DNA of 23,803 nucleotides from Promethearchaeota archaeon. Lineage in GTDB: Archaea > Asgardarchaeota > Lokiarchaeia > Sigyniarchaeales > SOKP01. How positions within the stretch are numbered: position 1 is the first letter of the stretch; each line of letters opens with the position of its first letter. This document shows positions 3,740 through 23,701 of this stretch, piece by piece. A program made the position numbers and the translations under genes. The notes beneath the pieces are model-generated. The model had not been told where the DNA came from, did no database searches, and saw only the letters and a program-made list of their open reading frames with translations. The stretch is from the NCBI GenBank assembly GCA_018238625.1, contig JABCSY010000061.1, positions 1-23,803 of the forward strand, given 5' to 3'.

Positions 3740-5122
3740 ATGACAGAACAACAAAAAATGAAGTTTTCTGATTCAATCACAACAAAAAAAATGTTTTTTT
3801 ATACTCTTGGCGGTATAAGTAGTGGTTTATTGTTCACTATGTGGGGGCAAATTCAATTTTTTGCGGTGAATTTTCTATTAATTCCAACAGCAGTAATTCC
3901 GTTGATCTATTTAATATATTCGATTATAGATGGTTTAAACGATCCAATTATTGGATATTTTGCCGATAATTCCAAGAAATTGACCTCAAGATTTGGAAAG
4001 AGATTTCCGTGGATTATTGGAGGTTTAGTTATAGGTCCAATTTTTTTAATCTTAAGTTTTATCCAAATTTCTCCTGACATTCTGATATCTGTAATTTGGT
4101 TAATGGTTATTATGGCGGTATATGATACTTTTATGTCGTCAAGGGAGATTAATGAAATGGCTTTATTTCCCGATTTATTTAGGGAAGATTCCCATAGAAG
4201 AAAAGTAATCGTTATAGGAGCAATTATTGGGGGTATAGCAACAATTTTTATCAATGTCTTAATCCCTAGATTCATATCGTCAATTGGATATTTGGGAACG
4301 GTATTTCTTGTTGTTATTTTTGGTTACATTTTGGCCATTCCATATAGTTTTGGAATTCGAGAACCTAAAGAAATGAAGGCGTTTCGTGCAGAATTGGACA
4401 ATACTCAAAGTGGATCATCCCCTATAGGTGAAGTGATTAAACGGGTTTTTAAGGATCGTAGTTGGATGGGAATTACAATCGCAGGTTTTTCCTGGTCTGT
4501 AGCGGGGGCGTGTTTTCTATACGGCCTTAATTTTTACGTGGAACATTCATTAGGATTAGATATAGGGACTACTGCTCTACCTCTTTTGATGGTGAATAGT
4601 GTTGGGTTTCTTCTTGCTCCTTTGTGGACATGGATTTCTAGAAAAATCGGTGTTAGAAATGCATATATAGCGGGTATGTTTTGTAATATTATCGCGTATT
4701 TCTCATTGATGTTTGTTACTGATTTAATTAGTTTAACTTTAGTATTTGCTTTGGCGGGCGTTGGATTTAGTGCAACTGCTGGAGTCATTTTCGGGTTACT
4801 GAGAGCACAAGGTATAGACAATGCAACAGTTAATTCTGGAAAACGTGAAGAAGGAAGTTATTCAGGTATTTACAAGATTTTCACAGCTTTCTCATACTTT
4901 TTTCAGACAGTAATTTTTGCGATTGTAGCAATGCTTACGGGTTACGATCCAATTCTAGCAACAGGGAACACTGAAACTGCAAAGTTTGGTTTACTTTTTC
5001 AAATGTCAATAATTCCAATGATTATAACTATAATTGGTACGATTGCTTTTTTCTTCCTGTATAAAATATCAAAAGAAGAGGCTATAGATATCAAATTGAA
5101 AATAGAAGAAATGAATCTTTAA
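3740..5122 (+). CDS. GPH-family (MelB-like, MFS_2) glycoside/cation symporter
   Basis: About 12 TM segments; DGLNDPIIGYFAD cation-site helix, SRFGKRFPWI loop and GKREEGSYSG C-terminal GPH motif. Confidence 0.88.
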   Translation: MTEQQKMKFSDSITTKKMFFYTLGGISSGLLFTMWGQIQFFAVNFLLIPTAVIPLIYLIYSIIDGLNDPIIGYFADNSKKLTSRFGKRFPWIIGGLVIGPIFLILSFIQISPDILISVIWLMVIMAVYDTFMSSREINEMALFPDLFREDSHRRKVIVIGAIIGGIATIFINVLIPRFISSIGYLGTVFLVVIFGYILAIPYSFGIREPKEMKAFRAELDNTQSGSSPIGEVIKRVFKDRSWMGITIAGFSWSVAGACFLYGLNFYVEHSLGLDIGTTALPLLMVNSVGFLLAPLWTWISRKIGVRNAYIAGMFCNIIAYFSLMFVTDLISLTLVFALAGVGFSATAGVIFGLLRAQGIDNATVNSGKREEGSYSGIYKIFTAFSYFFQTVIFAIVAMLTGYDPILATGNTETAKFGLLFQMSIIPMIITIIGTIAFFFLYKISKEEAIDIKLKIEEMNL

Positions 5123-5125
5123 TCA

Positions 5126-5140
5126 TTTTATTTTTTTTTT
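5126..5140 (+). terminator. Oligo-T archaeal terminator candidate
   Basis: T10 run at 5131-5140 just after the MFS stop codon. Confidence 0.45.
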
Positions 5141-5203
5141 ATGAAAAGTTATTTTTAATTCTGCATTTTTACTTGTGTAATATATTATTAAGGGAAAATT
5201 GAT

Positions 5204-7249
5204 ATGAACGAGATTTATTCAAAAGAACAACTCCAAAAATTACCATTTATGGATAGCAACCTTAATTTGGAAAATCGGGTAGAAGATTTATTAAGTAGAT
5301 TAACGCTTGAGGAAAAATTTAAGCTAAGCTCTGGAAGATTTATGTGGCATACTAAACCTATTAAAAGGTTGGGTGTAAAACCATTTACGATGTACGATGG
5401 GCCTCACGGGGTTCGACCCGACACTATGGGTGAAATATTGTGTACTTATTTTCCTTCAGGTATTTGTAGGACAGCAACATGGAATCCTAAACTATCTCAC
5501 GAATTTGGGAAAGCTGTAGCAGAAGAAGTTCGTGAAGTTGGTGCTCACATGCTACTAGCTCCGGGTATCAATATTCAAAGAACTCCAATGAATGGAAGGA
5601 CTTTTGAGTATCAAACAGAGGACCCACATTTAAATAAAGTTATTGCTGTTGCTACCGTGAAAGGAATTCAAAGCCAAAAAATTGCGGCGTGTGTAAAACA
5701 CTTCATATGTAACAATCAAGAAGTAAATAGATTCACAGTGAGTTCCGAAGTGAGCGAACGGGCGCTTCAAGAAATATATTTTCCCGCTTTCAAGGCTACA
5801 GTTGAAGAAGCTGATGCATGGTCTTTCATGAGTTGTTATAATAAAGTTAATGGGATCTATGGATCAGAAGACTTCAATTTAATACGAGAGAGATTAATGG
5901 GAAAATGGGGATTTAGGGGCTTTGTAGTTTCCGATTGGAATGCCACAGCCTATACAAGCACAGGAAGTTGTGTTACAGCAGGGTTATCTCTCGAAATGCC
6001 TACAGCAAAAAAGTACAATAAAAGAAATATGAAAAAAGCCTTTCAAGAAGGTAAATTCACCGAAGACTCATTAAACGATAATGTCAAGAGATTACTAAGG
6101 GTTATGTTTTTAGTTGGATTATATGACGCTGAGAATACGCTCCCTCGTGGTAGTAGGAATACCCTTGAACATCAAGCGATAGCTCGCAAGATAGCAGAAG
6201 AAGGGATTGTACTTTTGAAAAACGAGGAAGCTTTACTACCCTTAGATATTAATACAATAAAAAGGTTAGCTGTTATTGGGCCAAATGCGAACTTTAGAAT
6301 AGTAGAAGGTGGTATATTATCTGGGGGGGGCGGTAGCTCAGTTAATTATCCTCCATACGAGATTACGCCTCTTGAGGGCTTAAAGCAGAAATGTAAGGAT
6401 AAATTGGAAATTATTGATACGCCTTCAAAAGCAGATGTAACAATAATTTTCGCTGGACTCAATCACGATCCAGGGATGGATGCTGAAGGCGTAGATAAGA
6501 ACGCGTTTGAATTGCCTTCAGATCAAATTGAATTAATTAATAAAACAGTAAAGGAAAATCCCAAAACGATCGTAGTACTGATCAATGGAAGCCCTATAGC
6601 CATGGAAGATTGGATCGATAACATTCCTTCTGTTATTGAAGCTTGGTACGGAGGAATGGAGGCTGGACACGCTATAGCGAACGTTTTATTTGGCGATGTG
6701 ACCCCTTCTGGAAAACTCACTATGACATTTCCAAAAAAACTTTCAGATTCACCCGCCCATGTATCAAAGAGAACTTACCCGGGGGACGATAAGGTTTTTT
6801 ACGATGAGGGAATTTTTGTTGGATATCGCCATTTTGACACAAAAGATATCGAACCGCTCTTTCCTTTTGGTCATGGGTTATCTTATACTACTTTCGCCTA
6901 TGAAAATGTAATAATTAACAAAGAATATGTAAGAGGAGATGACAAGTTTATAGTATCTGTTGACATCGTTAACTCAGGCAAACGCTCTGGAGCAGAAGTT
7001 GTACAACTCTATGTTCAAGATATAGAATCTAGCGTAGAGAGACCATTAAAAGAATTGAAAGGATTTAAAAAAGTAAATCTTAATCCTGGGGAAAAAACTA
7101 ATGTTGTATTTGAATTAGAAAAGAGCGATCTCTCTTTTTATGACGATGTAAGCGGTAAATGGAAAGTAGAGGAGGGTTTATTCAGCATTTTAATTGGAAG
7201 CTCTTCACGGGATATTCGTCTTCAATGTAAAATCGAATATATCGGATAA
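5204..7249 (+). CDS. GH3 beta-glucosidase/beta-xylosidase (BglX-like) with C-terminal Fn3-like domain, cytoplasmic
   Basis: DGPHGVR, GRTFEY, CVKHF, MSCYNKVNG, VVSDW (nucleophile Asp), YDEGIFVGYRHFD, PFGHGLSYTTF and EVVQLYV. No signal peptide is evident. Confidence 0.95.
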   Translation: MNEIYSKEQLQKLPFMDSNLNLENRVEDLLSRLTLEEKFKLSSGRFMWHTKPIKRLGVKPFTMYDGPHGVRPDTMGEILCTYFPSGICRTATWNPKLSHEFGKAVAEEVREVGAHMLLAPGINIQRTPMNGRTFEYQTEDPHLNKVIAVATVKGIQSQKIAACVKHFICNNQEVNRFTVSSEVSERALQEIYFPAFKATVEEADAWSFMSCYNKVNGIYGSEDFNLIRERLMGKWGFRGFVVSDWNATAYTSTGSCVTAGLSLEMPTAKKYNKRNMKKAFQEGKFTEDSLNDNVKRLLRVMFLVGLYDAENTLPRGSRNTLEHQAIARKIAEEGIVLLKNEEALLPLDINTIKRLAVIGPNANFRIVEGGILSGGGGSSVNYPPYEITPLEGLKQKCKDKLEIIDTPSKADVTIIFAGLNHDPGMDAEGVDKNAFELPSDQIELINKTVKENPKTIVVLINGSPIAMEDWIDNIPSVIEAWYGGMEAGHAIANVLFGDVTPSGKLTMTFPKKLSDSPAHVSKRTYPGDDKVFYDEGIFVGYRHFDTKDIEPLFPFGHGLSYTTFAYENVIINKEYVRGDDKFIVSVDIVNSGKRSGAEVVQLYVQDIESSVERPLKELKGFKKVNLNPGEKTNVVFELEKSDLSFYDDVSGKWKVEEGLFSILIGSSSRDIRLQCKIEYIG

Positions 7250-7337
7250 GTTTGTATTTTTAAAATTTTCTTACTATTACTTTTTTTTCTTTCATATATG
7301 TGATTTATTGGGAAAGCTCGTTACTTTATGTGGGTAT

Positions 7338-8747
7338 TTAACTTAACTCTTCATTTAACTTAATGGTTTTTAGAAAAAGAAGACTTATCAAGTAGAAGAT
7401 ACCCATGGATGATAATAAAAAAGTGATTATAATTGGACTATTTTCATTCGGTCCAGAAAGAATAAAGCCTAATATTATTGAAGAAAGCGCTTGACCAATA
7501 GATGTAAAAAAGGTCAGTGATCCATAATAAGCACCTGATAATTTAGAGATTGCTATACTAGAATTTAATTTATTATCTTTATGAGAGGCTTCATGAACCA
7601 ATGTAGCACCAATAGGGATGGCAAATAATGGAAACGCATACATAGATCCTAATATCGTTCCAATTGATAGTATAAAAATAAAAATTTTTAATCCAAAAGA
7701 AAGGAACTCTAGCAAAAAGAGAAGTTCTAATAATGAGCCAATTGTCGCAAGTCCGATACATATGAAATATTTTGTTATGAGACTTCTTTTAGTAAGGATT
7801 TTTCTCCATATAAAATACCAAGTAAACTTACTAAAAATAGAGACTATTATGTATATAAAAAATTCGCTTTCTTTAAATTTAAGAACATTAACTAAAAAAG
7901 GGAATATTAGAATTCCTAGCGTTATCCCAGATATACTATGCAAGAACCTGACTCCCAAAAAACTTCTAAATTTTTTATCTTTAATAGGTACTGCAATTTG
8001 TTGAATAGTAGACACAATCGATATTTTATTCTTTTCATCAATTGAGGTATTATTATGAAATTTTTCATCTACTGAAAAGAAGGTGAAAATTATTGTTATT
8101 AACCCAAAAATCGCGAATGTTATACCTATCATTGGAATATAGAGAAGAACTAATTCTCCTGAAGGCTGCCACCATTTTACATTTTCAGGATCGGCGAGTA
8201 TACTCTGTACTATTAAGGGTAACATTAATGCTAATATTGAAGCAATAATTGAAAATATGGCTCTATTAGAAGCAACAACTTTCCTGTTTTTTTGAGTTTG
8301 AGATTGTTCTGGTAACATTGATAAGTAAACATTAAAAATTAATGTACCCGATATAGCTTGTAATATCGTCATAGACCATAAATAAATTGCCGTTGGCCAA
8401 AAAAAAGAATCCGCTTGAGGAGCATACCATGGAGGAAACCATATTAAAATGTTTGCTAAAACCCATAATGGTAGTGCAAAAAGCAAAAAAGGTCGTCTTT
8501 TTCCCAATTTTCCGGGTGTTTTATTATCAACTATAACTCCAAATATTATTGAGAAAAAGGCACCAATAATTAATTGCATTGAAATTCCAATTGAGACAAG
8601 TATTGAGTTAAGATTAATTGTATACACATAAAACTGGAAAACAAACGTTCCGAATAATATATTTACTAATGATATTCCGAAGTCTCCAATTGAATAACCA
8701 AATAATCGAAATCCCAATAACTCCCGGGGGCTAGCATCCTCAACCAT
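7338..8747 (-). CDS. GPH-family (MFS_2) transporter
   Basis: About 12 TM segments; GYSIGDFG, GVIVDNKTPGKLGKRRPF and SGAYYG motifs. Confidence 0.85.
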   Translation of the reverse strand: MVEDASPRELLGFRLFGYSIGDFGISLVNILFGTFVFQFYVYTINLNSILVSIGISMQLIIGAFFSIIFGVIVDNKTPGKLGKRRPFLLFALPLWVLANILIWFPPWYAPQADSFFWPTAIYLWSMTILQAISGTLIFNVYLSMLPEQSQTQKNRKVVASNRAIFSIIASILALMLPLIVQSILADPENVKWWQPSGELVLLYIPMIGITFAIFGLITIIFTFFSVDEKFHNNTSIDEKNKISIVSTIQQIAVPIKDKKFRSFLGVRFLHSISGITLGILIFPFLVNVLKFKESEFFIYIIVSIFSKFTWYFIWRKILTKRSLITKYFICIGLATIGSLLELLFLLEFLSFGLKIFIFILSIGTILGSMYAFPLFAIPIGATLVHEASHKDNKLNSSIAISKLSGAYYGSLTFFTSIGQALSSIILGFILSGPNENSPIIITFLLSSMGIFYLISLLFLKTIKLNEELS

Positions 8748-8872
8748 AATAGTAGAACTTTTTTTAGTATAATGTTTATAAAACTAAATGTAGCTTAGAA
8801 TTACAATATTATTTTTTTTAAAAAAGGATAAAAAAAAAGATGTGAAATTATGTTTAAATAATAATTGAAGAT

Positions 8873-9301
8873 TTAATCTTCAAAATATTCTGCTCCTTCT
8901 TCCGTAGCTAGGCCAACAATTTCCCCATAAGCGATAGCATCTTGAAGGTTGCCTTCTATAGCTAGGTCCCCAGACATGTAGGCGCTAGTAGAATCTAATT
9001 CGCCAGAGGATAATCCGGCCCAAGTTGCTCCTGTTGCGGACATGGTAACGCTCGGGTCATCAGCATCTCCTTCGCCATAATCGATCTTTCCGTCTCCCAG
9101 TTTAACCCAATACTTATAATTAACGTCAGTCACTACGAGTTGAACCGCCATAGGATCGATATCTTCTAATTCTTCTTTTAAATCTTCGCTTTCATCGACC
9201 ATTTGCTTGACAAACTCGTACATTTTTAGAGCGTCAGAAGGTTGGCTTGAGCCTTTTGCTCTCATTTCTTTTAATTCTTTTATTAAATTCTCATCAACCA
9301 T
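8873..9301 (-). CDS. SCP2 sterol-carrier/lipid-transfer domain protein
   Basis: C-terminal DPSVTMSA...LSSGELDSTSAYMSGDLAIEGNL matches the SCP2 signature (GxLxxxxAFMxGKLKIxGD). Short helical N-terminal extension; very acidic. Confidence 0.85.
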   Translation of the reverse strand: MVDENLIKELKEMRAKGSSQPSDALKMYEFVKQMVDESEDLKEELEDIDPMAVQLVVTDVNYKYWVKLGDGKIDYGEGDADDPSVTMSATGATWAGLSSGELDSTSAYMSGDLAIEGNLQDAIAYGEIVGLATEEGAEYFED

Positions 9302-9515
9302 TTTAAATTTCTACCTTTTTTTTTTTTATTAAGGTTACAGTTATAGATTACGATATAAGTTTATTTAAAGTTTTATTTTTTGAGATTGTACAGAGGTAAA
9401 ATATATCTATAAAAATTTTTAATTTAGAATTTAATTTACATCAATTCCATCTAAAACTTTTTAATTTTGAGCAAACTTAATAAAATAATATTAAATCTAT
9501 CTCTTCGTTTTAAAC

Positions 9516-10772
9516 ATGCTAAAAGTAGGTATAATTGGTTGTGGTGACATCGCAAACTTAAACGTGTTAGGATATATTCGCTCTCAAGACGCGGAACTCG
9601 TTGCTGTGTGTGATACTGATTTAAAAATTGCTGGTAAAAAGTTAGAAAGATGGGGTTTACGGACCGTTAAAATCTATACTGATTATAAAAAGATGATTGA
9701 TCGCGAAGATCTTGATATCGTAGAAATTTTAACTCCACATCATCTTCACGCTCCAATGACAACATATTGTGCTAAAGCGGGAGTTCCAGGAATTTCGGTA
9801 CAAAAGCCAATGGCTCATACGATAACAGATTGTGAAAACATGATTCGTGTTTGTAACGATGAAAATGTAAAACTTAAAATATTTGAAAACTTTAGGTTTT
9901 ATCCAGTTTATTTAAGAGCAAAAGAGCTGCTAGATCAAGGAATAATAGGAGAATGTTTAAATTTCAGAATAAACACCATTGCCATGGGAGGTCCAGGTAT
10001 GCCAGTAGATATGAAAGCTCTTCTTTGGCGTCGTAATATTGATAAATGCGGAGGGGGTTCATGGATATATGACGATGGAATTCATAAATTCTCAATGGCG
10101 CTATGGTTAATGGATCAAGAGAAAGTCGATGAATTATACGGCTGGATCGATTATTTTTCGACGGTGATGGATTCACCAAGTCTCATTTTTTGGAAATACC
10201 CTAAAAAAGAATTAGATGATCCCCCTAAATACGGTTCAATGCAGTTTACTCTTGCTCCTAATGTTTATTATCCAAGTAATTATTACGATTGTGACGAATT
10301 CATTGAAATCTCTGGAACGAAAGGTATGATATGGTTAAACCAGTGTACTAGTGGTGGAAATCTGATATCTAAAACGCCTCAATATCCACCTATTGTTGTG
10401 TATAGTGGTGGTGAAGTCAAAACTTATGGAGAAGAATTACCACGGGATTGGAGATATTCTTTTATTAATTCTACTGAACATTTTATTCGTGCTATACAAG
10501 AGAAGAGCGACCCGATTTATACTGGCGAACAAGGGAGGGATTTAAGCATTTTTGCTAAAATGCCTTTTATATCGAATCAACAGAAAAGGATTGTAAGGTG
10601 GGACGAAATTACTCCAGAAAATGAGCAAAATGATTCTTGTACCGTGAAGGAGCTTGTGAAAGTTGATGGAGGTACATTTAGAAAATATCTTAAAAATATT
10701 AGAATGGATTTAAAAAAAGGGATTCAAGAAGGATTAGAGCATAAAGAATTTAAGTATCAATATGAACTTTAA
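9516..10772 (+). CDS. Gfo/Idh/MocA family NAD(P)-dependent oxidoreductase, paralog A
   Basis: VGIIGCG Rossmann motif, ILTPHHLH, VQKPMA (EKP variant) and GGGSWIYDDGIH (DxxxH catalytic motif). Confidence 0.9.
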   Translation: MLKVGIIGCGDIANLNVLGYIRSQDAELVAVCDTDLKIAGKKLERWGLRTVKIYTDYKKMIDREDLDIVEILTPHHLHAPMTTYCAKAGVPGISVQKPMAHTITDCENMIRVCNDENVKLKIFENFRFYPVYLRAKELLDQGIIGECLNFRINTIAMGGPGMPVDMKALLWRRNIDKCGGGSWIYDDGIHKFSMALWLMDQEKVDELYGWIDYFSTVMDSPSLIFWKYPKKELDDPPKYGSMQFTLAPNVYYPSNYYDCDEFIEISGTKGMIWLNQCTSGGNLISKTPQYPPIVVYSGGEVKTYGEELPRDWRYSFINSTEHFIRAIQEKSDPIYTGEQGRDLSIFAKMPFISNQQKRIVRWDEITPENEQNDSCTVKELVKVDGGTFRKYLKNIRMDLKKGIQEGLEHKEFKYQYEL

Positions 10773-10778
10773 TTTATT

Positions 10779-11885
10779 TTAAGGGAATTCTTTCAATGAT
10801 ACTTCTCTGCCCAATTCAGAGGATCTTATAGCAGCTAAATTAAATCTTAAATTGGATTTGGCTTGTTCACCAGATAATATTGGTTTTTTGTTTCCTTTAA
10901 CAACCTCTATAAAATGTTTCGTAGCATTAATAAAGCTTTGTTTCCAGTCATTTTCAAATTCGTTATAAGTTTCCACTTTACCATCGCGAATTATAACAAT
11001 AGGAGCAAAAATGGCTGAATTTGACATAGGGTTTCCAATAGAAGTCCCTTGATTTATTTTCATAATTCCTCTACTTGCGATAACTTCAACAAATTCATCA
11101 GTGGAATAATATTTTGAAGGAAGTTTCATCTCAGGCATTAAAGAAAATTCCATATGGCCGTATTGTGGAACAAGGTGTTCTCTGCTTTGCATATATTTGA
11201 ACATTACGTATGCTGGAGCATCTAAACCTTTAAAATTGTCAGTCCACGCAAAAACTTTTTCGATATCTTCGTCAAAGAACCACCTTGCTAAAGCAAACGC
11301 ATGCCACCCGTTGTCAAGTAGAACTGGGGAGCCCATTTTAGCGCCACCTATCATTTTTGGATCTTCTCTCCATTTGTTTGCACTACTTGGCGTGTTCCAA
11401 CCGCCTGTACCGCCCATCGCAATTTTTATTCGAATTGACGATGGATCTCCAATATAATCTAAATCGATTAATTCTTTGGCTTTTAATACGTGAGGGGTAA
11501 ATAAGAAATTCTCGTATATCGAAAGAATTGATCCCGAATCTTTACAAGCTTTAATCATTTTGTCTGCTTCAGTTAGCGTTAAAGCCATTGGTTTTTGGAC
11601 AGAGATTGCTTTCACTCCTTTCCCAGCAGCGTAGATCGTTACTTCAGCGTGTAGGTGATGAGGTAGGAGGATTTCAACAATATCCAATTCCTCTTTATCC
11701 AACATTTCTTTATAATCAGAATATATTCTGATGTTTTTATCTAAATCGAACTGTTTGATTTTCCTTTTTGCTTTTTCTGAAGTTCTATTGCACAGGCATG
11801 TTATCTTTGCGTCTTTATTATTTAAATATCCTAATACATTAAGATCAAAAATAACGCCAGTACCAATTATCCCTACTTTCAGCAT
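10779..11885 (-). CDS. Gfo/Idh/MocA family NAD(P)-dependent oxidoreductase, paralog B
   Basis: VGIIGTG, ILLPHHLH, VQKPMA and LLDNGWH motifs. Confidence 0.9.
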   Translation of the reverse strand: MLKVGIIGTGVIFDLNVLGYLNNKDAKITCLCNRTSEKAKRKIKQFDLDKNIRIYSDYKEMLDKEELDIVEILLPHHLHAEVTIYAAGKGVKAISVQKPMALTLTEADKMIKACKDSGSILSIYENFLFTPHVLKAKELIDLDYIGDPSSIRIKIAMGGTGGWNTPSSANKWREDPKMIGGAKMGSPVLLDNGWHAFALARWFFDEDIEKVFAWTDNFKGLDAPAYVMFKYMQSREHLVPQYGHMEFSLMPEMKLPSKYYSTDEFVEVIASRGIMKINQGTSIGNPMSNSAIFAPIVIIRDGKVETYNEFENDWKQSFINATKHFIEVVKGNKKPILSGEQAKSNLRFNLAAIRSSELGREVSLKEFP

Positions 11886-14935: not shown

Positions 14936-16480
14936 TTGACAATAATGGACTCGAGCAAAAAGGATTTAGGAGCGGTCTTAACTCCTTCAGGGACTTCCGA
15001 TTTTATCGTATCTAAATTAGGTAAAATTAAAAGTAATCAAAAAGTTTTAGATCCGTGCGTAGGTCCCGGAGCTTTTGTTAAATCGTTATTGAAAGCTGGA
15101 ATTAAAAAAACACAGATTTCTGCTTATGACGTGAATCTTGCTTATAAAACAGATATTGAAGAATTAGGTGTATCCTTTAAAGCAGTAGATACATTAATAT
15201 CGTTTGATTCGGATTGCTATGACGAGTTCGATTTTATTGTTGGAAACCCTCCTTACTTAAATAAGGCAAGTAGTTACGTGAGAGAAAATAGGGTAAAGTT
15301 AAAAAAGATATATGGAAAAACCAACGCTCACGAAACTTATTCAATGTTTATAGTGAATAGTATATGGCGTTTGAAGGAGGGAGGAAAATTAGGTTTTATC
15401 ACGAGCGATACTTTCTTAACTTTAAGCACTCATAAAAAATTAAGAGAATTCATTCTTAATAATTGTATAATAAACGAAATATTACTCGCACCAACTAATT
15501 TATTTGATAAACAGAAAGTTAGCACATATCCAGCAATAATCATTTTAACTAAGTGTTCCGGAGATAGCAATAGGCAAGTTCGGAATAATAATTTAATGAG
15601 TATAATTTCGAGGATAAAAAATGAAGACGAATATTGGAAACCACAAGTTGTAAACGAAATCAAGCAGAGAAGATATAAATCTTTACCTTTTAGCATATTT
15701 TTTTTTGATGTAGAGGACCAAATAATTGATTTGTTTGAAAACGCTCCTAAACTAGATAATTTTATTAAAGGGTACATTGGAATGCACACTCATGACAATA
15801 AGAAATACATTGCTGCGATTGAAAGTACGGAACTAGCAGACATTTTCAGAAAGAAAAACAATACGAAAATTAAGCAAAATGAGAATTTCAAAATTGTTTT
15901 AAGAAGCGATTTAAAAACAGAGAAATGGAAACCTTATCTAAAAAGAGGTGGAGGAGATCAATACTATAGACCTATTATGGAAGCTTTAGAGTGGAACGAA
16001 AAAGCGATCTCTGTTTACGACATTCCAAGTACAGCGCCTTTTGAAAAAGAAGGAGTCGTTATTAGCGGTATTAGCTCAAAGTTAGCCGCCCGTTATATGC
16101 CAAAAGGTTGTTATTGGGACTCGAATAAAGCAATTGGTTTTATCGCTAAGGACAAATCGATTTCTATTGAATATTTCTTGGGACTATTGAATAGTTCTCT
16201 ATATAATTATCTGTCTAAAGGAATAATAAACAATACCAACAGCATTCAAATATCTGGGATTCATTCTTTGCCTTTTATTAAACCCAACAAAAAAACGCAA
16301 GAAGATATTGAAGTATTGGTTAAACAAATAATTGAAAATAAGAAAAAAAGCTTAGGTTACGACTATACGCGTGAACAGAAATCAATTGATGACATAATTT
16401 TTAATTTTTACGCTGTAAGATTTAATTTTTCATCAAAACTAAAAAAAAAATTAGAAGAAAATTACTCGATTTATAAATAA
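14936..16480 (+). CDS. N6-adenine DNA methyltransferase, gamma class (TaqI/Eco57I-like), with C-terminal target recognition domain; apparently orphan
   Basis: Motif X (GAVLTP), motif I (VLDPCVGPGAF), motif IV (IVGNPPY), LKEGGKLGFIT and a TaqI_C-like YFLGLLNSSL segment. No nuclease domain is evident. Confidence 0.85.
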   Translation: MTIMDSSKKDLGAVLTPSGTSDFIVSKLGKIKSNQKVLDPCVGPGAFVKSLLKAGIKKTQISAYDVNLAYKTDIEELGVSFKAVDTLISFDSDCYDEFDFIVGNPPYLNKASSYVRENRVKLKKIYGKTNAHETYSMFIVNSIWRLKEGGKLGFITSDTFLTLSTHKKLREFILNNCIINEILLAPTNLFDKQKVSTYPAIIILTKCSGDSNRQVRNNNLMSIISRIKNEDEYWKPQVVNEIKQRRYKSLPFSIFFFDVEDQIIDLFENAPKLDNFIKGYIGMHTHDNKKYIAAIESTELADIFRKKNNTKIKQNENFKIVLRSDLKTEKWKPYLKRGGGDQYYRPIMEALEWNEKAISVYDIPSTAPFEKEGVVISGISSKLAARYMPKGCYWDSNKAIGFIAKDKSISIEYFLGLLNSSLYNYLSKGIINNTNSIQISGIHSLPFIKPNKKTQEDIEVLVKQIIENKKKSLGYDYTREQKSIDDIIFNFYAVRFNFSSKLKKKLEENYSIYK

Positions 16481-18115: not shown

Positions 18116-19933
18116 TTATAATTTTTCTCCTTTTATTTCTTCATCGTACTTCAATCTACGATCGGTTAGATAATGTGGAATTGGTACATCCCACCAACCA
18201 CATGCAGGGCTTCCGGTGTGGGGATAGTCTCTATTTATAAGGATCTCTATAACTACAGGCTTATTTGATTTGCTAGCTCGCTCCAGTGCGGGAAGAATTT
18301 CTTCTTTTTTAGAAATCTTTTCAGAGTAGCATCCAAAACCCTCAGCTATTTTTGCAAAATCGGGAGAATAGGTATTTCCATTTTCATCGTAAAAACTAGT
18401 GCCGTAACCTCGATTTTCGCCAAACGCTGCTTGCTGAAGATCCTTGATAGCAATCCAACCGTGATTATTTAAGACTATAAAGAAGATGTTAGTTAATCCT
18501 AATTGAACTGCTACAGATAGCTCCGAAATCGTCATCATCAAATCGCCGTCGCCTACGAGCGCTACGACTTGACGATTAGGTTTTCCTATATCTATTGAAC
18601 CTAGTTTTGCGCCAATTGCGGCTGGAACGCTATATCCCATTGTAGAAAATCCTCCCGCGGTAATACAAGTTTTAGGCTCGTAAAATTCTAACTCTTGGAT
18701 CATTTGGGCCTGTACGTTACCTGAGCTAGTTACAATTATTGCGTCTCTATCGAAAAACTTTCTTATTTCCCTTAAAACGGTTGAAATCATTACCGGTACT
18801 TTTAAATCGTCTCGATGCTCGTCAAGAAAGGCGAACCATTTTTTCTTTTCTTTTTGTATTTCTTTAAAATAATCTGTTTTTTCGTAATTTCTTGAGTAAT
18901 CGCCAAATTCTTCAATAATTTGACGCAAACACGCTTTAGCGTCTCCTACTACTCCAACTGCGACAGGATAATTTTTGCCAATTTCGTGTGGATCGATATC
19001 GATTTGTATTAATTTTGTTGGCGGAACCGAAAAGCTTACGCCATCCCTGTAGGAGCTAGCAGTTTCGTCGGCAAATCGACAACCTATAGATAGAAGCACA
19101 TCTGCGGTTGAAGTCATTTTCAATCCAACGGTAGTCCCTTTGCTACCAGTGCTCCAAGCGAATAGTTTGTGATCGTTTGGAAATGCATCTTTACCCATCA
19201 TTGTAACGACGACAGCAGCACCAAGTTTCTCTGCTACTTCTTTAACTTCGTCGCAAGCGTCTGCTGTAACCGCGCCTCCACCTAACAATAGAACTGGTCT
19301 TTTTGCTTTTTTTAATAATTCTACTGCCTTTTTAATTTGTTCTGGAGCACCTAATATTTTTCCACATGCCCTTCTTTCCAAAGGATTGGGTATTTCAACA
19401 TTAATAGCATCCGCCTGAACATCCATAGGAAGATCAATGACAGTTGGTCCCATTCTACCAGTCATCATTTGATTAAAAGCTCTTTGCATGACGGTAGGTA
19501 ATTGTTTTACGTCGCTTACTTGCCAAGAACGTTTAACAACAGGCTCCAATATTCGAGGCATATTAGAATCTCTATTTCTTTCAATCTCTTGAAGTACTCC
19601 CTTGCCTCGCATGTGTGTGTGAGTATTTCCAGTAATGCAGAGTACAGGAAAACTATCTACGAATGCATCAGCAAGACCAATGGCGGTGTTAATTGCCCCG
19701 GGACCAATCGATGTAAATACGCATAATGGTTGAGAAGTGACTCTAAAGTATCCTATTGACATATGAACGCCACTCATCTCTTGTTTGGGTTGGATCAATG
19801 TAATTGTATCTTTGTTTTGGAATAACGCATCCACGAACGCTAAGCAACCATGCCCAGGTATCCCAAAAACATATTTTACACCTTCTTCAATCAGATATTT
19901 GGCGATTATTTCTCCTCCAGTATATTTAGGCAT
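18116..19933 (-). CDS. ThDP-dependent enzyme of the acetolactate synthase superfamily with IolD-like features
   Basis: VFGIPGHG, QE catalytic Glu, TSIGPGA, GDGDLMM...NN ThDP-binding motif and C-terminal GWWDVP. Confidence 0.85.
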   Translation of the reverse strand: MPKYTGGEIIAKYLIEEGVKYVFGIPGHGCLAFVDALFQNKDTITLIQPKQEMSGVHMSIGYFRVTSQPLCVFTSIGPGAINTAIGLADAFVDSFPVLCITGNTHTHMRGKGVLQEIERNRDSNMPRILEPVVKRSWQVSDVKQLPTVMQRAFNQMMTGRMGPTVIDLPMDVQADAINVEIPNPLERRACGKILGAPEQIKKAVELLKKAKRPVLLLGGGAVTADACDEVKEVAEKLGAAVVVTMMGKDAFPNDHKLFAWSTGSKGTTVGLKMTSTADVLLSIGCRFADETASSYRDGVSFSVPPTKLIQIDIDPHEIGKNYPVAVGVVGDAKACLRQIIEEFGDYSRNYEKTDYFKEIQKEKKKWFAFLDEHRDDLKVPVMISTVLREIRKFFDRDAIIVTSSGNVQAQMIQELEFYEPKTCITAGGFSTMGYSVPAAIGAKLGSIDIGKPNRQVVALVGDGDLMMTISELSVAVQLGLTNIFFIVLNNHGWIAIKDLQQAAFGENRGYGTSFYDENGNTYSPDFAKIAEGFGCYSEKISKKEEILPALERASKSNKPVVIEILINRDYPHTGSPACGWWDVPIPHYLTDRRLKYDEEIKGEKL

Positions 19934-20143
19934 TATAATCAGGTCTTATTTACTAATTTCCATTTTTATTAATAGGATTTAATGTATTAAATAATTAAAA
20001 ATTTCATTTTAATCCTATTGGTTTTATTACTTTTATTGATTAATTTTAAAAATTCAATATACCCCTCGATTTATATAGTAAACATCAAGAGATAGATTTA
20101 TACACTTCATTAAAAATTAAGTTTTATTTAACTGATGATTTAA

Positions 20144-21469
20144 GTGCCGTCTACTTTAGAAAAGATTCGAGTCTTGGGAGCAAATTCAAAATATGATATT
20201 TGTGCTAGTACCGCTTCCAGTCGCACCGAAAAATATCCAAAACTTTTTGGAGATTCAAAAAATTGGATTGGAGCTACGGCAAGTGCGGGAGTTTGCCACA
20301 GCTATACACCTGATGGTCGATGCGTGAGTCTTTTCAAAACTCTATACACTAATAAATGCATCTACAATTGCAAATATTGCTTTACTAATAGTTGTAAGCA
20401 CCGTATGAGTTTTACACCAGAGGAATACGCTCGCACATTTATGAAACTCTATTCGATGAACGTGGTGGAAGGAGTTTTCATTTCATCTGGAGTTTGTGGT
20501 AGCGCCGATGAAACAACCGAAGAAATGTTGGAAGTAGTTCGACTACTTCGTTTCAAATATAACTTTGGTGGATACGTGCATTTCAAGTGTTTACCAGGTG
20601 TGAGTAAGTATCTCCTTAAAGAGGCGATATCTCTATCTGATCGTATTTCAATTAATTCGGAAGCTTCCACTAAAGATCATTTGGCTGAAATCGCAGAACA
20701 GAAAGATTATTACAACGATATTATAACTCGCCAACGCTGGTTAAAGCAGATCCGTATCAGACATAATGAAGAAACTCTCAAAATCTTGAAAGATTTAAAA
20801 CAAGACAATCAATTGAGATACCAAGAAAACATGATTAAAGGTCGACGGGAAAATGGGTATAAAAAATTTCGATGGGATGGTGCTCCAATTCTCAATAGTG
20901 GACAGACCACGCAATTTGTAGTAGGGGCTGCAGAAAGTGAAAGCGATTACGACCTGCTTAAACGAATTGATTGGGGATACAAAGAAGTTGATTTGAGGCG
21001 TGCGTATTTTTCTTCGTTCATTCCAATTGAAGGTACACCGTTAGCAGGTAAACAAGCAGCTTCGTTAGCGAGAGAACATAGATTATATCAAAGCGATTGG
21101 TTATTACGAATCTATCATTATAAATTGAAAGATTTGAAAGAAGTATTGACCGATGATGGTAATTTACCCGAAGGAGATCCCAAAGTTCACTTAGCAAGAG
21201 AGTATTTTAAGGATCGTGGCCCAGTAGATCCAAACCAAGCGTCATACCAAGAATTACTCCGCGTTCCTGGAATTGGGCCAATTTCCGCTAAGCGGATAAT
21301 TAATTTGCGAGCTAAAAAATTTTCGTTTAAACGCAGGCAAGATCTTAAATCTGTTGGCGTGGTGTTAAAGCGAGCTGACCCGTACCTCTTGATAAACGGC
21401 CAGAAGCAAACTACTCTTTCTACTTTTATTGATCTTAATAGTAGCACAATTTTACAGAGTGAAATCTAA
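20144..21469 (+). CDS. Putative DNA modification/repair radical SAM protein with helix-hairpin-helix (TIGR03916-like); GTG start
   Basis: KYDICAS, GVCHSYTPDGRCVSLFK, CIYNCKYC (CxxxCxxC), GYVHFK, GQTTQFVVGA, REHRLYQSDWLLRIY and HhH motif LLRVPGIGPISAKRI. Confidence 0.9.
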   Translation: MPSTLEKIRVLGANSKYDICASTASSRTEKYPKLFGDSKNWIGATASAGVCHSYTPDGRCVSLFKTLYTNKCIYNCKYCFTNSCKHRMSFTPEEYARTFMKLYSMNVVEGVFISSGVCGSADETTEEMLEVVRLLRFKYNFGGYVHFKCLPGVSKYLLKEAISLSDRISINSEASTKDHLAEIAEQKDYYNDIITRQRWLKQIRIRHNEETLKILKDLKQDNQLRYQENMIKGRRENGYKKFRWDGAPILNSGQTTQFVVGAAESESDYDLLKRIDWGYKEVDLRRAYFSSFIPIEGTPLAGKQAASLAREHRLYQSDWLLRIYHYKLKDLKEVLTDDGNLPEGDPKVHLAREYFKDRGPVDPNQASYQELLRVPGIGPISAKRIINLRAKKFSFKRRQDLKSVGVVLKRADPYLLINGQKQTTLSTFIDLNSSTILQSEI

Positions 21470-22131
21470 TGAGAAAGAAAACAAATAGTCGGGATCCGTT
21501 AGAAGTTATTGGACGCGCAAAAGGATATTCACGCGAAGAATTGGTCCGTAATCTTCCACGCCATTCTGAGTTTTCTCCTGTTCTAATGCAACAAATCAAG
21601 AAGCTTCCAGAAGTAATTTTACGCAATTCAGGAACTCCAGTAGCAAAAAAAATTAACCGAATGATGCGAGAAGTGTCTACTGAAGCGTATCGTGCGAAGC
21701 AATTCGCTCGAACAGAAATAAATAATCGTGGTGTGCTATTCGGAGTTGTACAACTTAAGCATAGAGTGATTGATCTTATCTTAAATTATTTTCATAATAG
21801 GTGGCCACAATGTGTAATCTGTTTGTATAACGAACACACCCATAAAACTGGTGTAATAGACGAAAAAGGATTGATTCGTGAAATTAAATCTCCTTTGAAA
21901 AATGCTGTAGAAAAAATTAGTATTAATCGCCCCTTTATCCCATATTTTGATGATATTCAATTTTCTGGTGAAGAAATCTTCGAAACGCTATACAAATCAC
22001 AATTCATATCTGAACGAGAAAACCAACCTTACTTTAAAAGGATGATCCCGGACCATTGTTTTAAGTTACCAGGGATGAAAAATGGCGTAGAAAAGCGTTT
22101 TCGAAATAGGAACCTTAATGAATTTCTTTAG
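21469..22131 (+). CDS. DUF4130 / TIGR03915-like putative DNA metabolism protein, partner of the radical SAM enzyme
   Basis: TAATG stop/start overlap with the radical SAM gene. VSTEAYRAKQFAR, HRVIDLILNYFHNRW and FETLYKSQFISEREN...MIP resemble the DUF4130 pattern (VxrExHrmxxFvRF; HFxxR; WxxYxxsxxIxxRxN...MP). Confidence 0.75.
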   Translation: MRKKTNSRDPLEVIGRAKGYSREELVRNLPRHSEFSPVLMQQIKKLPEVILRNSGTPVAKKINRMMREVSTEAYRAKQFARTEINNRGVLFGVVQLKHRVIDLILNYFHNRWPQCVICLYNEHTHKTGVIDEKGLIREIKSPLKNAVEKISINRPFIPYFDDIQFSGEEIFETLYKSQFISERENQPYFKRMIPDHCFKLPGMKNGVEKRFRNRNLNEFL

Positions 22132-22309: not shown

Positions 22310-23701
22310 ATGTCTTCAGAAAGCTTTTCAAAGCATAGTAGAATCGAGATTCTGTTGTTTAGCGGTGGTAATTTTATAACAGAGTTTGTAAGTACTGTAT
22401 TCGGCAGTTGGTTATTTTTTTTCTACGAGATTGAAGTTGGTTTAGACGGTTGGTTAATTACTTTAGGGTATTTAATTTATGCTGTGTGGAGTGCGCTCAA
22501 TTCGCCTCTTATAGGGTATTATACCAATCGCTCTACGCGTTTGACGCGTCGTTGGGGACGCCATTTCCCGTGGATTTTGATTTCAGTATTTCCATGTTTT
22601 TTTTGTTTATATTTTATATATTCTCCACCCCTATTTAATCCACAAAGTGCGCAATGGGTAATTTTTCTATGGTTTGCTCTTTTCCTTTGTTTATATAACT
22701 TCTTTTTTACTATTTTTGGAGTAAATTACACATCTTTATTTCCTAAAAAATTTCGTTCTGATTTAGAGAGAAGAAAAGCGTCTGGTATAATTGGTGGCAT
22801 CTCGTTTATTGCCTCTGGATTTGGTAGCGTTCTTCCTGCTCTGGTAATTCAATTTAACGATATAGCTTCTTACGCGGTTATGGCTCTAGTTTCCATGGTT
22901 ATTGCAGGGATCGTGATGTTACTTACCATCCCCGGTATCCGTGAAGATAAAAATCAAATTAAACAATATTTAACGCGACAGAATTCCAATCCGAATCAAA
23001 CATTTTTTAAAACATTGAAGTTTGCTATAAAACAGCGAAATCTTGCTGTTCTTACTATTGTAATGTTTTTAAATCTAATTATAATGCAAAGCGTTGGAGC
23101 TGCTTTCCCTTACGCCGTAAAATATATTTTTAACGCACCAGCGATAACAATTGCGCTAATAAGTCTTTTATATATAGCCGGAGCTGTTATTTCTATGCCT
23201 GTGTGGACAAAATTGGGAAACAAAATAAACAACAATCGTAAAACATTTTTGATTACTTGCGTTTTTTTAATTGGCTCCCAAATATTTCTGTTATTTGTTA
23301 GCGATTTGTTTTTCGCCTCCATTAGTGCTTTTATCTTCGGTTTTTGCTTAGCAGGATTCTGGACGACTTTAACGATGCCTATTAACGCCGATGTTCTTGA
23401 CGAGATTGCGGTACTTACAGGAGAACGTAACGAATCAATTTATATGGGAATACGAGGCTTTTTCGTTAGTTTTTCGATTGTTGCCCAGTCAATTATGTTT
23501 ACGATAATTCATAAAACCACCGGTTTTGTTGAAAATGCTGAATTACAATCAGAACTGGCACAATGGGGAATAAGATTTACGTTGGCTCTGATCCCATTGA
23601 TATGTACTTTTTTAACCTTACTCATCTTTTGGAAAATTTACGATCTAACTCCTGAAAGAGTGGATTCTATTAAAGCGAGGTTAAAGGAATTAAATCTTTA
23701 A
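22310..23701 (+). CDS. GPH-family (MFS_2) transporter
   Basis: About 12 TM segments; WSALNSPLIGY, RRWGRHFPWI and DVLDEIAVLTGERNESIYMG motifs. Confidence 0.88.
   Translation: MSSESFSKHSRIEILLFSGGNFITEFVSTVFGSWLFFFYEIEVGLDGWLITLGYLIYAVWSALNSPLIGYYTNRSTRLTRRWGRHFPWILISVFPCFFCLYFIYSPPLFNPQSAQWVIFLWFALFLCLYNFFFTIFGVNYTSLFPKKFRSDLERRKASGIIGGISFIASGFGSVLPALVIQFNDIASYAVMALVSMVIAGIVMLLTIPGIREDKNQIKQYLTRQNSNPNQTFFKTLKFAIKQRNLAVLTIVMFLNLIIMQSVGAAFPYAVKYIFNAPAITIALISLLYIAGAVISMPVWTKLGNKINNNRKTFLITCVFLIGSQIFLLFVSDLFFASISAFIFGFCLAGFWTTLTMPINADVLDEIAVLTGERNESIYMGIRGFFVSFSIVAQSIMFTIIHKTTGFVENAELQSELAQWGIRFTLALIPLICTFLTLLIFWKIYDLTPERVDSIKARLKELNL

Follow-up and report, generated by a model that had tools for sequence, protein, structure and literature searches.

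Spore photoproduct lyase (SplB, COG1533) is the one characterised DNA repair enzyme among the radical S-adenosylmethionine (radical-SAM) enzymes, and it relies on Cys and Tyr residues as hydrogen-atom donors. Another radical-SAM family, TIGR03916/COG4277, is described as encoded beside a gene of the TIGR03915/DUF4130 family, and fusions to a uracil-DNA glycosylase (UDG) make up ~40% of TIGR03915 proteins according to the TIGRFAM description. One study reports LexA/SOS control of a COG1573-COG4277 operon in Bacteroidetes, Verrucomicrobia and Alphaproteobacteria, and SOS regulation of SplB in some bacteria (PMC8565304), and another places the TIGR03916/TIGR03915 pair among the DdaA-activated damage-response genes of Acinetobacter (PMC12392091). 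The locus considered here lies in a stretch of 23,803 nucleotides (nt), hereafter the window, from a Promethearchaeota archaeon of the class Lokiarchaeia (assembly GCA_018238625.1, contig JABCSY010000061.1, forward strand). Its two adjacent genes, encoding a radical-SAM protein with a helix-hairpin-helix (HhH) domain and a DUF4130 partner, are a new archaeal member of this known, biochemically uncharacterised pair; they most likely form one two-subunit enzyme acting on DNA, and the evidence tilts modestly towards damaged DNA as the target of its radical chemistry.

Identity of the gene pair

An earlier note on this DNA, made from the sequence alone, had described a translationally coupled pair with a TAATG overlap, and both open reading frames (ORFs) are found as it placed them, sharing one base (Table 1). 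The radical-SAM ORF opens with a GTG codon that directly follows an in-frame TAA, and its product matches Pfam Radical_SAM over residues 68-206 (34.3 bits, cut-off 29.5) and HHH_3 over residues 360-404 (45.9 bits, cut-off 27). Residues 45-198 of the partner match Pfam DUF4130 (PF13566; 52.9 bits against a cut-off of 27, and 53 bits in the genome search). With these domains above their gathering scores, the note's assignment of the proteins to TIGR03916 and TIGR03915/DUF4130 proved right. In the genome search TIGR03916 scores 339.1 bits, covering profile positions 3-383/392 of 415, and profile searches return one copy of each gene from the genome. The control genomes of Bacteroides thetaiotaomicron and Caulobacter vibrioides gave matches above the cut-offs in the searches for both genes. 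The pair also fits the TIGR03916 family description, as a DUF4130 gene adjoins the radical-SAM gene with a 1-base overlap. A chance ORF or artefact was rejected, given an E value of about 1e-101 and hundreds of conserved orthologues.

The archaeal and bacterial pairs belong to the same families and share their gene order and tight coupling. Their proteins have in common the CX3CX2C core, the C-terminal HhH domain, a GICHS...DGRC motif and, in DUF4130, residues E72, R81, F108, R111, R183 and N185.

Linkage of the two genes was followed in the best 80 (L numbers) of an estimated 12,000 stretches with the family's motif in a one-genome-per-species collection, a set biased towards relatives of the archaeal protein. 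A DUF4130 gene lies directly 3' of the radical-SAM gene in 57 of these 80 loci, as judged with a hidden Markov model (HMM) built from the alignment, and 50 of the cases are confirmed by Pfam. Two Cellvibrio loci, L069 and L081, are among those that carry the pair. Four natural fusions of radical-SAM, HhH and DUF4130 parts, 660-729 aa in length, were also found (P0297, P0300, P0323 and the 660-aa ORF L089:236-2215), and an AlphaFold 3 complex of a Lachnospiraceae pair appears in a preprint with an ipSAE of 0.80 and an interface of 3,666 A2 (10.64898/2026.08.19.745780). The gene overlap, the constant adjacency in relatives, the natural fusions and the published prediction of a bacterial complex together argue that the two proteins work together, most likely as subunits of a single enzyme.

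The radical-SAM subunit

The three cysteines of the CX3CX2C motif are invariant in an alignment of 129 sequences, as are R136, H146, P151, N171, E173, Q257, D268 and Y324, and a further conserved block lies between the barrel and the HhH domain (R310, R313-Q316 and D345-K347). The AlphaFold2 model of the 441-aa protein (pLDDT 88.9, pTM 0.87) is of low confidence at residues 24-45 only, and its best Foldseek matches are HydE (E 1.6e-7), lipoyl synthase, PFL-activating enzyme, viperin and biotin synthase. The protein, the presumed catalytic subunit, has an intact CX3CX2C core and, in this model, a partial TIM-barrel that is closest to lipoyl synthase, HydE and BioB and appears to be less close to SplB. 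Lipoyl synthase, HydE and biotin synthase are the closest solved folds, but at only 10-16% identity; they act on small-molecule or protein-bound substrates and have no DNA-binding domain. The auxiliary-cluster motif of lipoyl synthase (LipA), CX4CX5C, is not present in the sequence, where the spacing is instead C51-x8-C60, with C20 in addition. A sequence search, made with the radical-SAM profile only, found no solved structure of either family.

The HhH domain, which the earlier note had read as DNA-binding, is closest to that of the DNA receptor ComEA (41% identity), and ComEA-like (HhH)2 domains are of the kind that binds the backbone of double-stranded DNA. Unlike its bacterial counterparts, the protein carries a lineage-specific insertion of ~40 residues (residues about 206-248). 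The inserted region is 45-74 residues long in the Asgard loci and 1-17 elsewhere, its columns are occupied in ~17 of 151 sequences, and most cluster representatives align in two stretches that flank it.

The DUF4130 partner

In an alignment of 49 DUF4130 proteins, R111 is invariant and E72, R81, F108, R183, N185 and P194 are conserved in at least 90%, the start Met aside. The Asgard partners have in common R31-H32, H98 and a Y175-x-S-Q motif. A C-terminal tail ending L-x-(D/E)-(F/Y) sets the archaeal partner apart from the bacterial ones. Partners from archaea are without exception short: they measure 188-236 aa, and their Pfam domain begins at residue 18-49. For the bacterial partners of the 80-locus set the length is 246-313 aa and the domain begins at residue 80-136. 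The archaeal proteins are ~60-85 residues shorter at the N-terminus, and all those aligned are missing the bacterial N-terminal subdomain with its YDGSFxGLLT motif (YDGSFEGLL). A profile of this subdomain, searched without a positive control, had no match in the window's genome at E<=1, leaving a split partner gene unsupported. A homology search with an Asgard DUF4130 profile returned no new diversity among the best 120 matches.

The AlphaFold2 model of the 220-aa partner (pLDDT 83.6, pTM 0.76) has no Foldseek match at E<=0.001, and its top 30 structural rows are mostly the DHHA1 half of RecJ, NrnA, Cdc45 or GdpP, or the C-Ala domain of AlaRS. This weak fold match suggests that the partner may resemble the linker and DHHA1 substrate-binding half of RecJ/NrnA-type proteins. 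The similarity to the DHH/DHHA1 phosphoesterases (RecJ, NrnA, GdpP, Cdc45) and to AlaRS C-Ala is weak, and the partner has no DHH catalytic domain or motif; the preprint reports that the catalytic residues are not conserved, not even one of them (10.64898/2026.08.19.745780).

Additional cysteines and two subfamilies

The earlier note also drew attention to additional conserved Cys and His residues N-terminal to the cluster motif, in the strings KYDICAS, GVCHS and GRC, and all of these, like CIYNCKYC itself, are present in the translation. Its claim of conservation stands for C51, H52 and C60, which are kept within a subfamily linked to DUF4130; it does not stand family-wide, nor for C20. Of the 136 cluster representatives that have an N-terminus, 67 carry Cys at position 20, 39 carry His at position 52 and 56 carry Cys at position 60; at position 51 there are 48 with Cys and 52 with Tyr (100 with one or the other), and C51 and C60 occur together in 41. 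Among the 77 loci with a readable radical-SAM ORF, the motif (C51 and C60, GICHS...DGRC) is present in 57, and 54 of these have DUF4130 in the locus; three have the motif only (L035, L054 and L063), one has the partner only and 19 have neither. C20, in KYDIC, is Cys in archaea and Ser or Ala in most motif-bearing bacterial members.

Of the 20 proteins without the motif, 17 group together in a single clade (support 96), which is made up of Chloroflexota, Methanobacteria and a few further lineages. It is safe to say that the alignments point to two subfamilies, one linked to DUF4130 and bearing the Cys-His...Cys motif, the other stand-alone and mostly with Tyr at position 51, and that the GVCHS and GRC cysteines, though not that of KYDIC, appear to mark the former. 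Cys and Tyr are the classic hydrogen-atom donors, and their alternation at position 51 fits such a role here, as in spore photoproduct lyase; C51 and C60, with H52, would be candidate hydrogen-atom donors or, alternatively, a putative second metal site.

The stand-alone clade of 17 (L042, L044-L048, L050, L053, L055, L058, L061, L064, L065, L067, L073, L074 and L098) has no adjacent DUF4130 gene. Neighbours of stand-alone radical-SAM/HhH genes include DUF6504 (L065), DinB_2 (L058), DprA (L061) and an IrrE-like peptidase with an HTH regulator (L045). One cluster representative (P0344) has an ApbE domain at the C-terminus of the radical-SAM/HhH protein in place of DUF4130.

Absence of a uracil-DNA glycosylase

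Some bacterial pairs are fused to, or lie beside, a family-4-like UDG (TIGR03914/COG1573) and are controlled by LexA or DdaA, whereas the archaeal genome has neither a UDG nor LexA-type regulation. The earlier note had remarked on the missing adjacent UDG, and the observation holds for the whole 4.29-Mb metagenome-assembled genome (97.9% complete, 7.6% contamination), in which no UDG-superfamily match was found (PF03167 at E<=0.001, TIGR03914 at E<=0.1); as a control, 13 of 14 other genomes were positive for PF03167. Two HhH-GPD glycosylases are encoded in the genome, so base-excision repair as such is present.

As a distinguishing feature, by contrast, the absence does not survive. Only two of the 57 DUF4130-linked loci (L079 and L086, both Acidobacteriota) carry a UDG domain, in each case fused to the C-terminus of DUF4130, and no UDG was found among 150 neighbouring ORFs within 2.3 kb in L021-L053; for L054-L100, 60 ORFs from 44 of the 47 loci were scanned, namely plus-strand ORFs just downstream and the L089 fusion ORF. 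Sampling within the class gave 61 genomes, that of the window among them; these are incomplete bins, in which gaps mean not found rather than absent. PF03167 matches occur in 14 of them, none near the pair on the same contig, and 47 have no match. A strong radical-SAM match is present in 54 of the genomes, 42 of which show no UDG match. The UDG-less pair is a common arrangement and not a special one. In a genome of the same genus, one UDG-domain match (G023:C36:30874-31353, locus L016) lies within an open frame of 976 aa, which is unusually long for one that encodes a UDG domain.

Distribution and phylogeny

Within the same-class sample, TIGR03916 matches were found in 55 of 61 genomes (E<=0.001; 54 of them at E<1e-50) and DUF4130 matches in 50, every one of these on the same contig and right beside the radical-SAM match. 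Across the phylum the distribution is patchy: at E<=1e-20 the radical-SAM gene was found in 45 of 151 genomes at least 80% complete, in 23 of 29 genomes of the window's family and commonly in a few other families, while two well-sampled families yielded no match (0 of 32 and 0 of 14). The nearest proteins, at 80-100% identity, come from metagenome bins labelled Promethearchaeota/Lokiarchaeota and with other Asgard names. The pair is not peculiar to this genome and is already annotated in public Asgard genomes assembled from metagenomes.

An exhaustive search of cluster representatives returned 3189 proteins at E<=0.001, of which 412 reach E<=1e-30. The archaea among the 80 best loci include Methanosarcinales, Methanotrichaceae, Methanomassiliicoccales, Thermoplasmata, Methanofastidiosum, Methanobacteria, Woesearchaeota, Micrarchaeota and Archaeoglobi, and the loci also span many bacterial phyla. 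In a quick FastTree phylogeny of 78 radical-SAM proteins, made with no bootstraps and a midpoint root only, the window's protein falls in an Asgard group of nine (support 100) within an all-archaeal set of 22 (support 98). A table of reconstructed genes of the last universal common ancestor in a review includes a protein of this name (PMC8307549).

Proposed function and alternative explanations

The predominant pointers to function are the control of the bacterial genes by LexA and DdaA and the repair genes that lie beside the pair elsewhere, namely an XPD/DinG-like helicase (L029, L052, L057, L062 and L068), UvrC (L066), a photolyase (L063) and NucS (L041). These lead to the reading of the pair as a two-subunit radical enzyme that repairs damaged DNA, towards which we lean, if cautiously, and which would liken it to SplB as a radical-SAM enzyme acting on DNA. 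In such a mechanism the HhH domain would dock the enzyme on DNA, and DUF4130 would close over the barrel opening and hold a flipped-out or single-stranded damaged nucleotide. The reduced cluster would cleave S-adenosylmethionine to generate a 5'-deoxyadenosyl radical, which would abstract hydrogen from the lesion, with C51 and C60 (and H52) serving as a hydrogen-atom or electron relay or as a second metal site. As the lesion, an adduct derived from a pyrimidine would be likeliest; it would be reversed directly or converted for ordinary base-excision repair, and no uracil-DNA glycosylase would be needed in this organism. A bolder version, which may be true but which we consider rather doubtful, takes the archaeal pair as the minimal, UDG-independent core (barrel, HhH and DHHA1-like lid) of an ancient oxygen-free radical DNA repair, in which the Cys51/His52/Cys60 site, whether a second metal centre or a relay for hydrogen atoms, would work only in the presence of DUF4130, and the bacterial N-terminal subdomain and UDG fusions would be later add-ons.

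Several observations weigh against the repair reading. For either family, the literature yielded only genomic or transcriptomic mentions, with no reaction and no archaeal characterisation, as the earlier note had supposed. To our knowledge archaea are without LexA, and the functional pointers are all bacterial; HhH and DHHA1-type modules, moreover, can bind RNA too. By Pfam, no repair genes lie beside the pair in the window, where the neighbours are a thiamine diphosphate (ThDP) enzyme, a major facilitator superfamily (MFS) permease and a glutamine synthetase. The HMM check proposed in the earlier note came out divided: DUF4130 is above its threshold, but both curated NCBIfam cut-offs lie above the scores obtained, TIGR03916 reaching 338.5 bits with the 441-aa protein (E 6e-101), 5 bits below its cut-off of 343.5, and TIGR03915 reaching 44.1 bits with the 220-aa protein (cut-off 112.25) over profile positions 91-234 of 243 only. 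The 5-bit shortfall is probably due to the lineage-specific insertion, and orthologues straddle that cut-off, full-length relatives scoring ~328-403 bits and 27 of the 61 sampled genomes lying above it. The partner, as its sequence indicates, is a DUF4130 protein and not a full-length TIGR03915 equivalog. As to the proposed cysteine site, locus L040 has the partner without the motif, and the association between motif and partner lies mostly in one clade, with only two independent contrasts on supported branches, too few for a test of co-evolution.

The pair might alternatively modify DNA, either by hypermodifying bases through radical chemistry or by a 'mutagenesis-related' activity that damage induces, and DUF4130 would then be the subunit that confers specificity. 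This would agree with the NCBI family name, 'DNA modification/repair', with the modifying enzymes among the structural neighbours (LipA, BioB, MiaB and RlmN) and with a type II N6 DNA methyltransferase gene 3.6 kb upstream that recurs near the pair in L022, L023 and L027. The methyltransferase linkage is seen only among close relatives, however, with unrelated genes in between; the pair has no PADLOC match, the CX4CX5C sulfur-donor motif is not there, and LexA/DdaA induction and the repair-gene neighbours fit repair better, which leaves DNA modification improbable. An activity on tRNA or rRNA, similar to that of RlmN, Cfr or MiaB, would make the DNA-repair label an annotation artefact, and we think it distinctly unlikely: a core gene for RNA modification would not be so patchy across the phylum, with no match found in two families, the nearest relative of the HhH domain is in a DNA receptor, and in bacteria both the induction by damage and the fusions to UDG speak for DNA. 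An anti-virus or restriction-type system attacking or marking foreign DNA is very hard to credit. In its favour, defence is a known role of radical-SAM enzymes, the structural neighbours include viperin-like ones, a methyltransferase is nearby and, in the Acinetobacter study, DdaA controls damage-response and defence genes alike (PMC12392091). Against it, PADLOC matches neither protein at E<=0.01; the genes are present in one copy each, are syntenic and share a conserved putative promoter of their own, and their surroundings are metabolic rather than those of an island, with GC content like that of the remainder of the window.

Genomic context

The flanking genes named in the earlier note, a ThDP enzyme and an MFS permease, were confirmed by Pfam (Table 1). 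Elsewhere the window encodes PcrB and geranylgeranyl reductase (archaeal lipid genes), dihydroxy-acid dehydratase, a peptidase and glutamine synthetase, and the GC content of the pair is similar to that of the remainder. In the upstream block, whose conserved AAATTC-type element lies at 20046-20060, AAATT, CC..C and TTTATA are invariant across eight aligned Asgard upstream regions, including L021, L025 and L026, where the upstream gene is another one. Its conservation despite differing upstream genes suggests that the pair has its own promoter. A near-palindromic GAAAATTC in the same block (20046-20077) could be a regulator site. Two runs from a single metatranscriptome study contain contigs with 90-99% similarity to stretches of both genes, and one 914-nt contig of a relative (81 differences) spans the gene junction. 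Such contigs do not show a single transcript and may stem from DNA carry-over, so this weak signal is not counted as evidence of expression.

Table 1. Features of the radical-SAM/DUF4130 locus (positions in the window; residues numbered within each protein).
Feature	Position	Strand	Remarks
Radical-SAM/HhH protein gene, TIGR03916/COG4277-type	20144..21469	+	441 aa; ORF list, Pfam, NCBIfam
DUF4130 partner gene, archaeal short form	21469..22131	+	220 aa, ATG start; ORF list, Pfam, NCBIfam
TAATG stop/start overlap, 1 base shared	21467..21471	+	TAA 21467-21469, ATG 21469-21471
C51-H52...C60 motif GVCHSYTPDGRC, residues 49-60	20288..20323	+	predicted beta-hairpin just before the cluster loop
CIYNCKYC, CX3CX2C radical-SAM [4Fe-4S] motif, residues 72-79	20357..20380	+	C72, C76 and C79 invariant, 129-sequence alignment
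Helical Lys/Arg/Glu-rich insertion, residues about 206-248	20759..20887	+	only in the window's own Asgard lineage
ComEA-like (HhH)2 DNA-binding domain, residues 360-404	21221..21355	+	
Pfam DUF4130 domain, residues 45-198	21601..22062	+	family-wide conserved E72, R81, F108, R111, R183, N185, P194
Conserved promoter block (putative)	20046..20077	+	TTAAAAATTCAATAT-like upstream element, C-rich stretch, TTTATA TATA box ~67 nt 5' of the start codon
ThDP enzyme gene, upstream neighbour	18116..19933	-	Pfam
MFS_2 permease gene, downstream neighbour	22310..23701	+	Pfam

The methyltransferase gene upstream of the pair (window 14936-16480, plus strand; Eco57I/TaqI_C type) matches PADLOC MTase_II at 3.2e-72, its PglX-like matches being weaker, and its counterparts occupy the same relative position in three Asgard relatives (L022:639-1964, L023:481-1968 and L027:317-1777). 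In L021-L024 and L027 a gene for a MinD/ParA/NUBPL-type P-loop ATPase lies 3' of the pair (for example L022:5984-6757, minus strand), where the window has the MFS permease instead. The ThDP gene 5' of the pair in L027 (2715-3808, minus strand) is present as two ORFs, with the N- and C-terminal domains apart and the central domain missing, and may be broken or mis-assembled. A sugar-use cluster at 3740-11885 of the window comprises MFS_2/GPH-type transporters (3740-5122 and 7338-8747), a GH3 glycosidase (5204-7249), two GFO/IDH/MocA oxidoreductases and an SCP2 protein; the permease downstream of the pair is a third transporter of the same type.

Implications

Of the damage-linked gene pairs that have no known reaction, this family is one of the more widespread, and the archaeal form, with its short partner and no glycosylase, is its smallest natural version for reconstitution. 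The comparison singles out candidate residues, C51, H52 and C60 in the radical-SAM subunit and E72, R81, R111, R183 and N185 in the partner, and the details worth pursuit are the short DHHA1-like partner of archaea, the Cys-His...Cys motif of the partner-dependent subfamily and the fold resembling lipoyl synthase and HydE. If the bolder version of the repair reading is true, radical-SAM enzymes that repair DNA would comprise a second class next to that of spore photoproduct lyase, one kept in most Lokiarchaeia. Were the chemistry of the pair a radical reversal of lesions, it would reveal how anaerobes, including the closest archaeal relatives of eukaryotes, repair damage that aerobes treat with oxygen-dependent enzymes.

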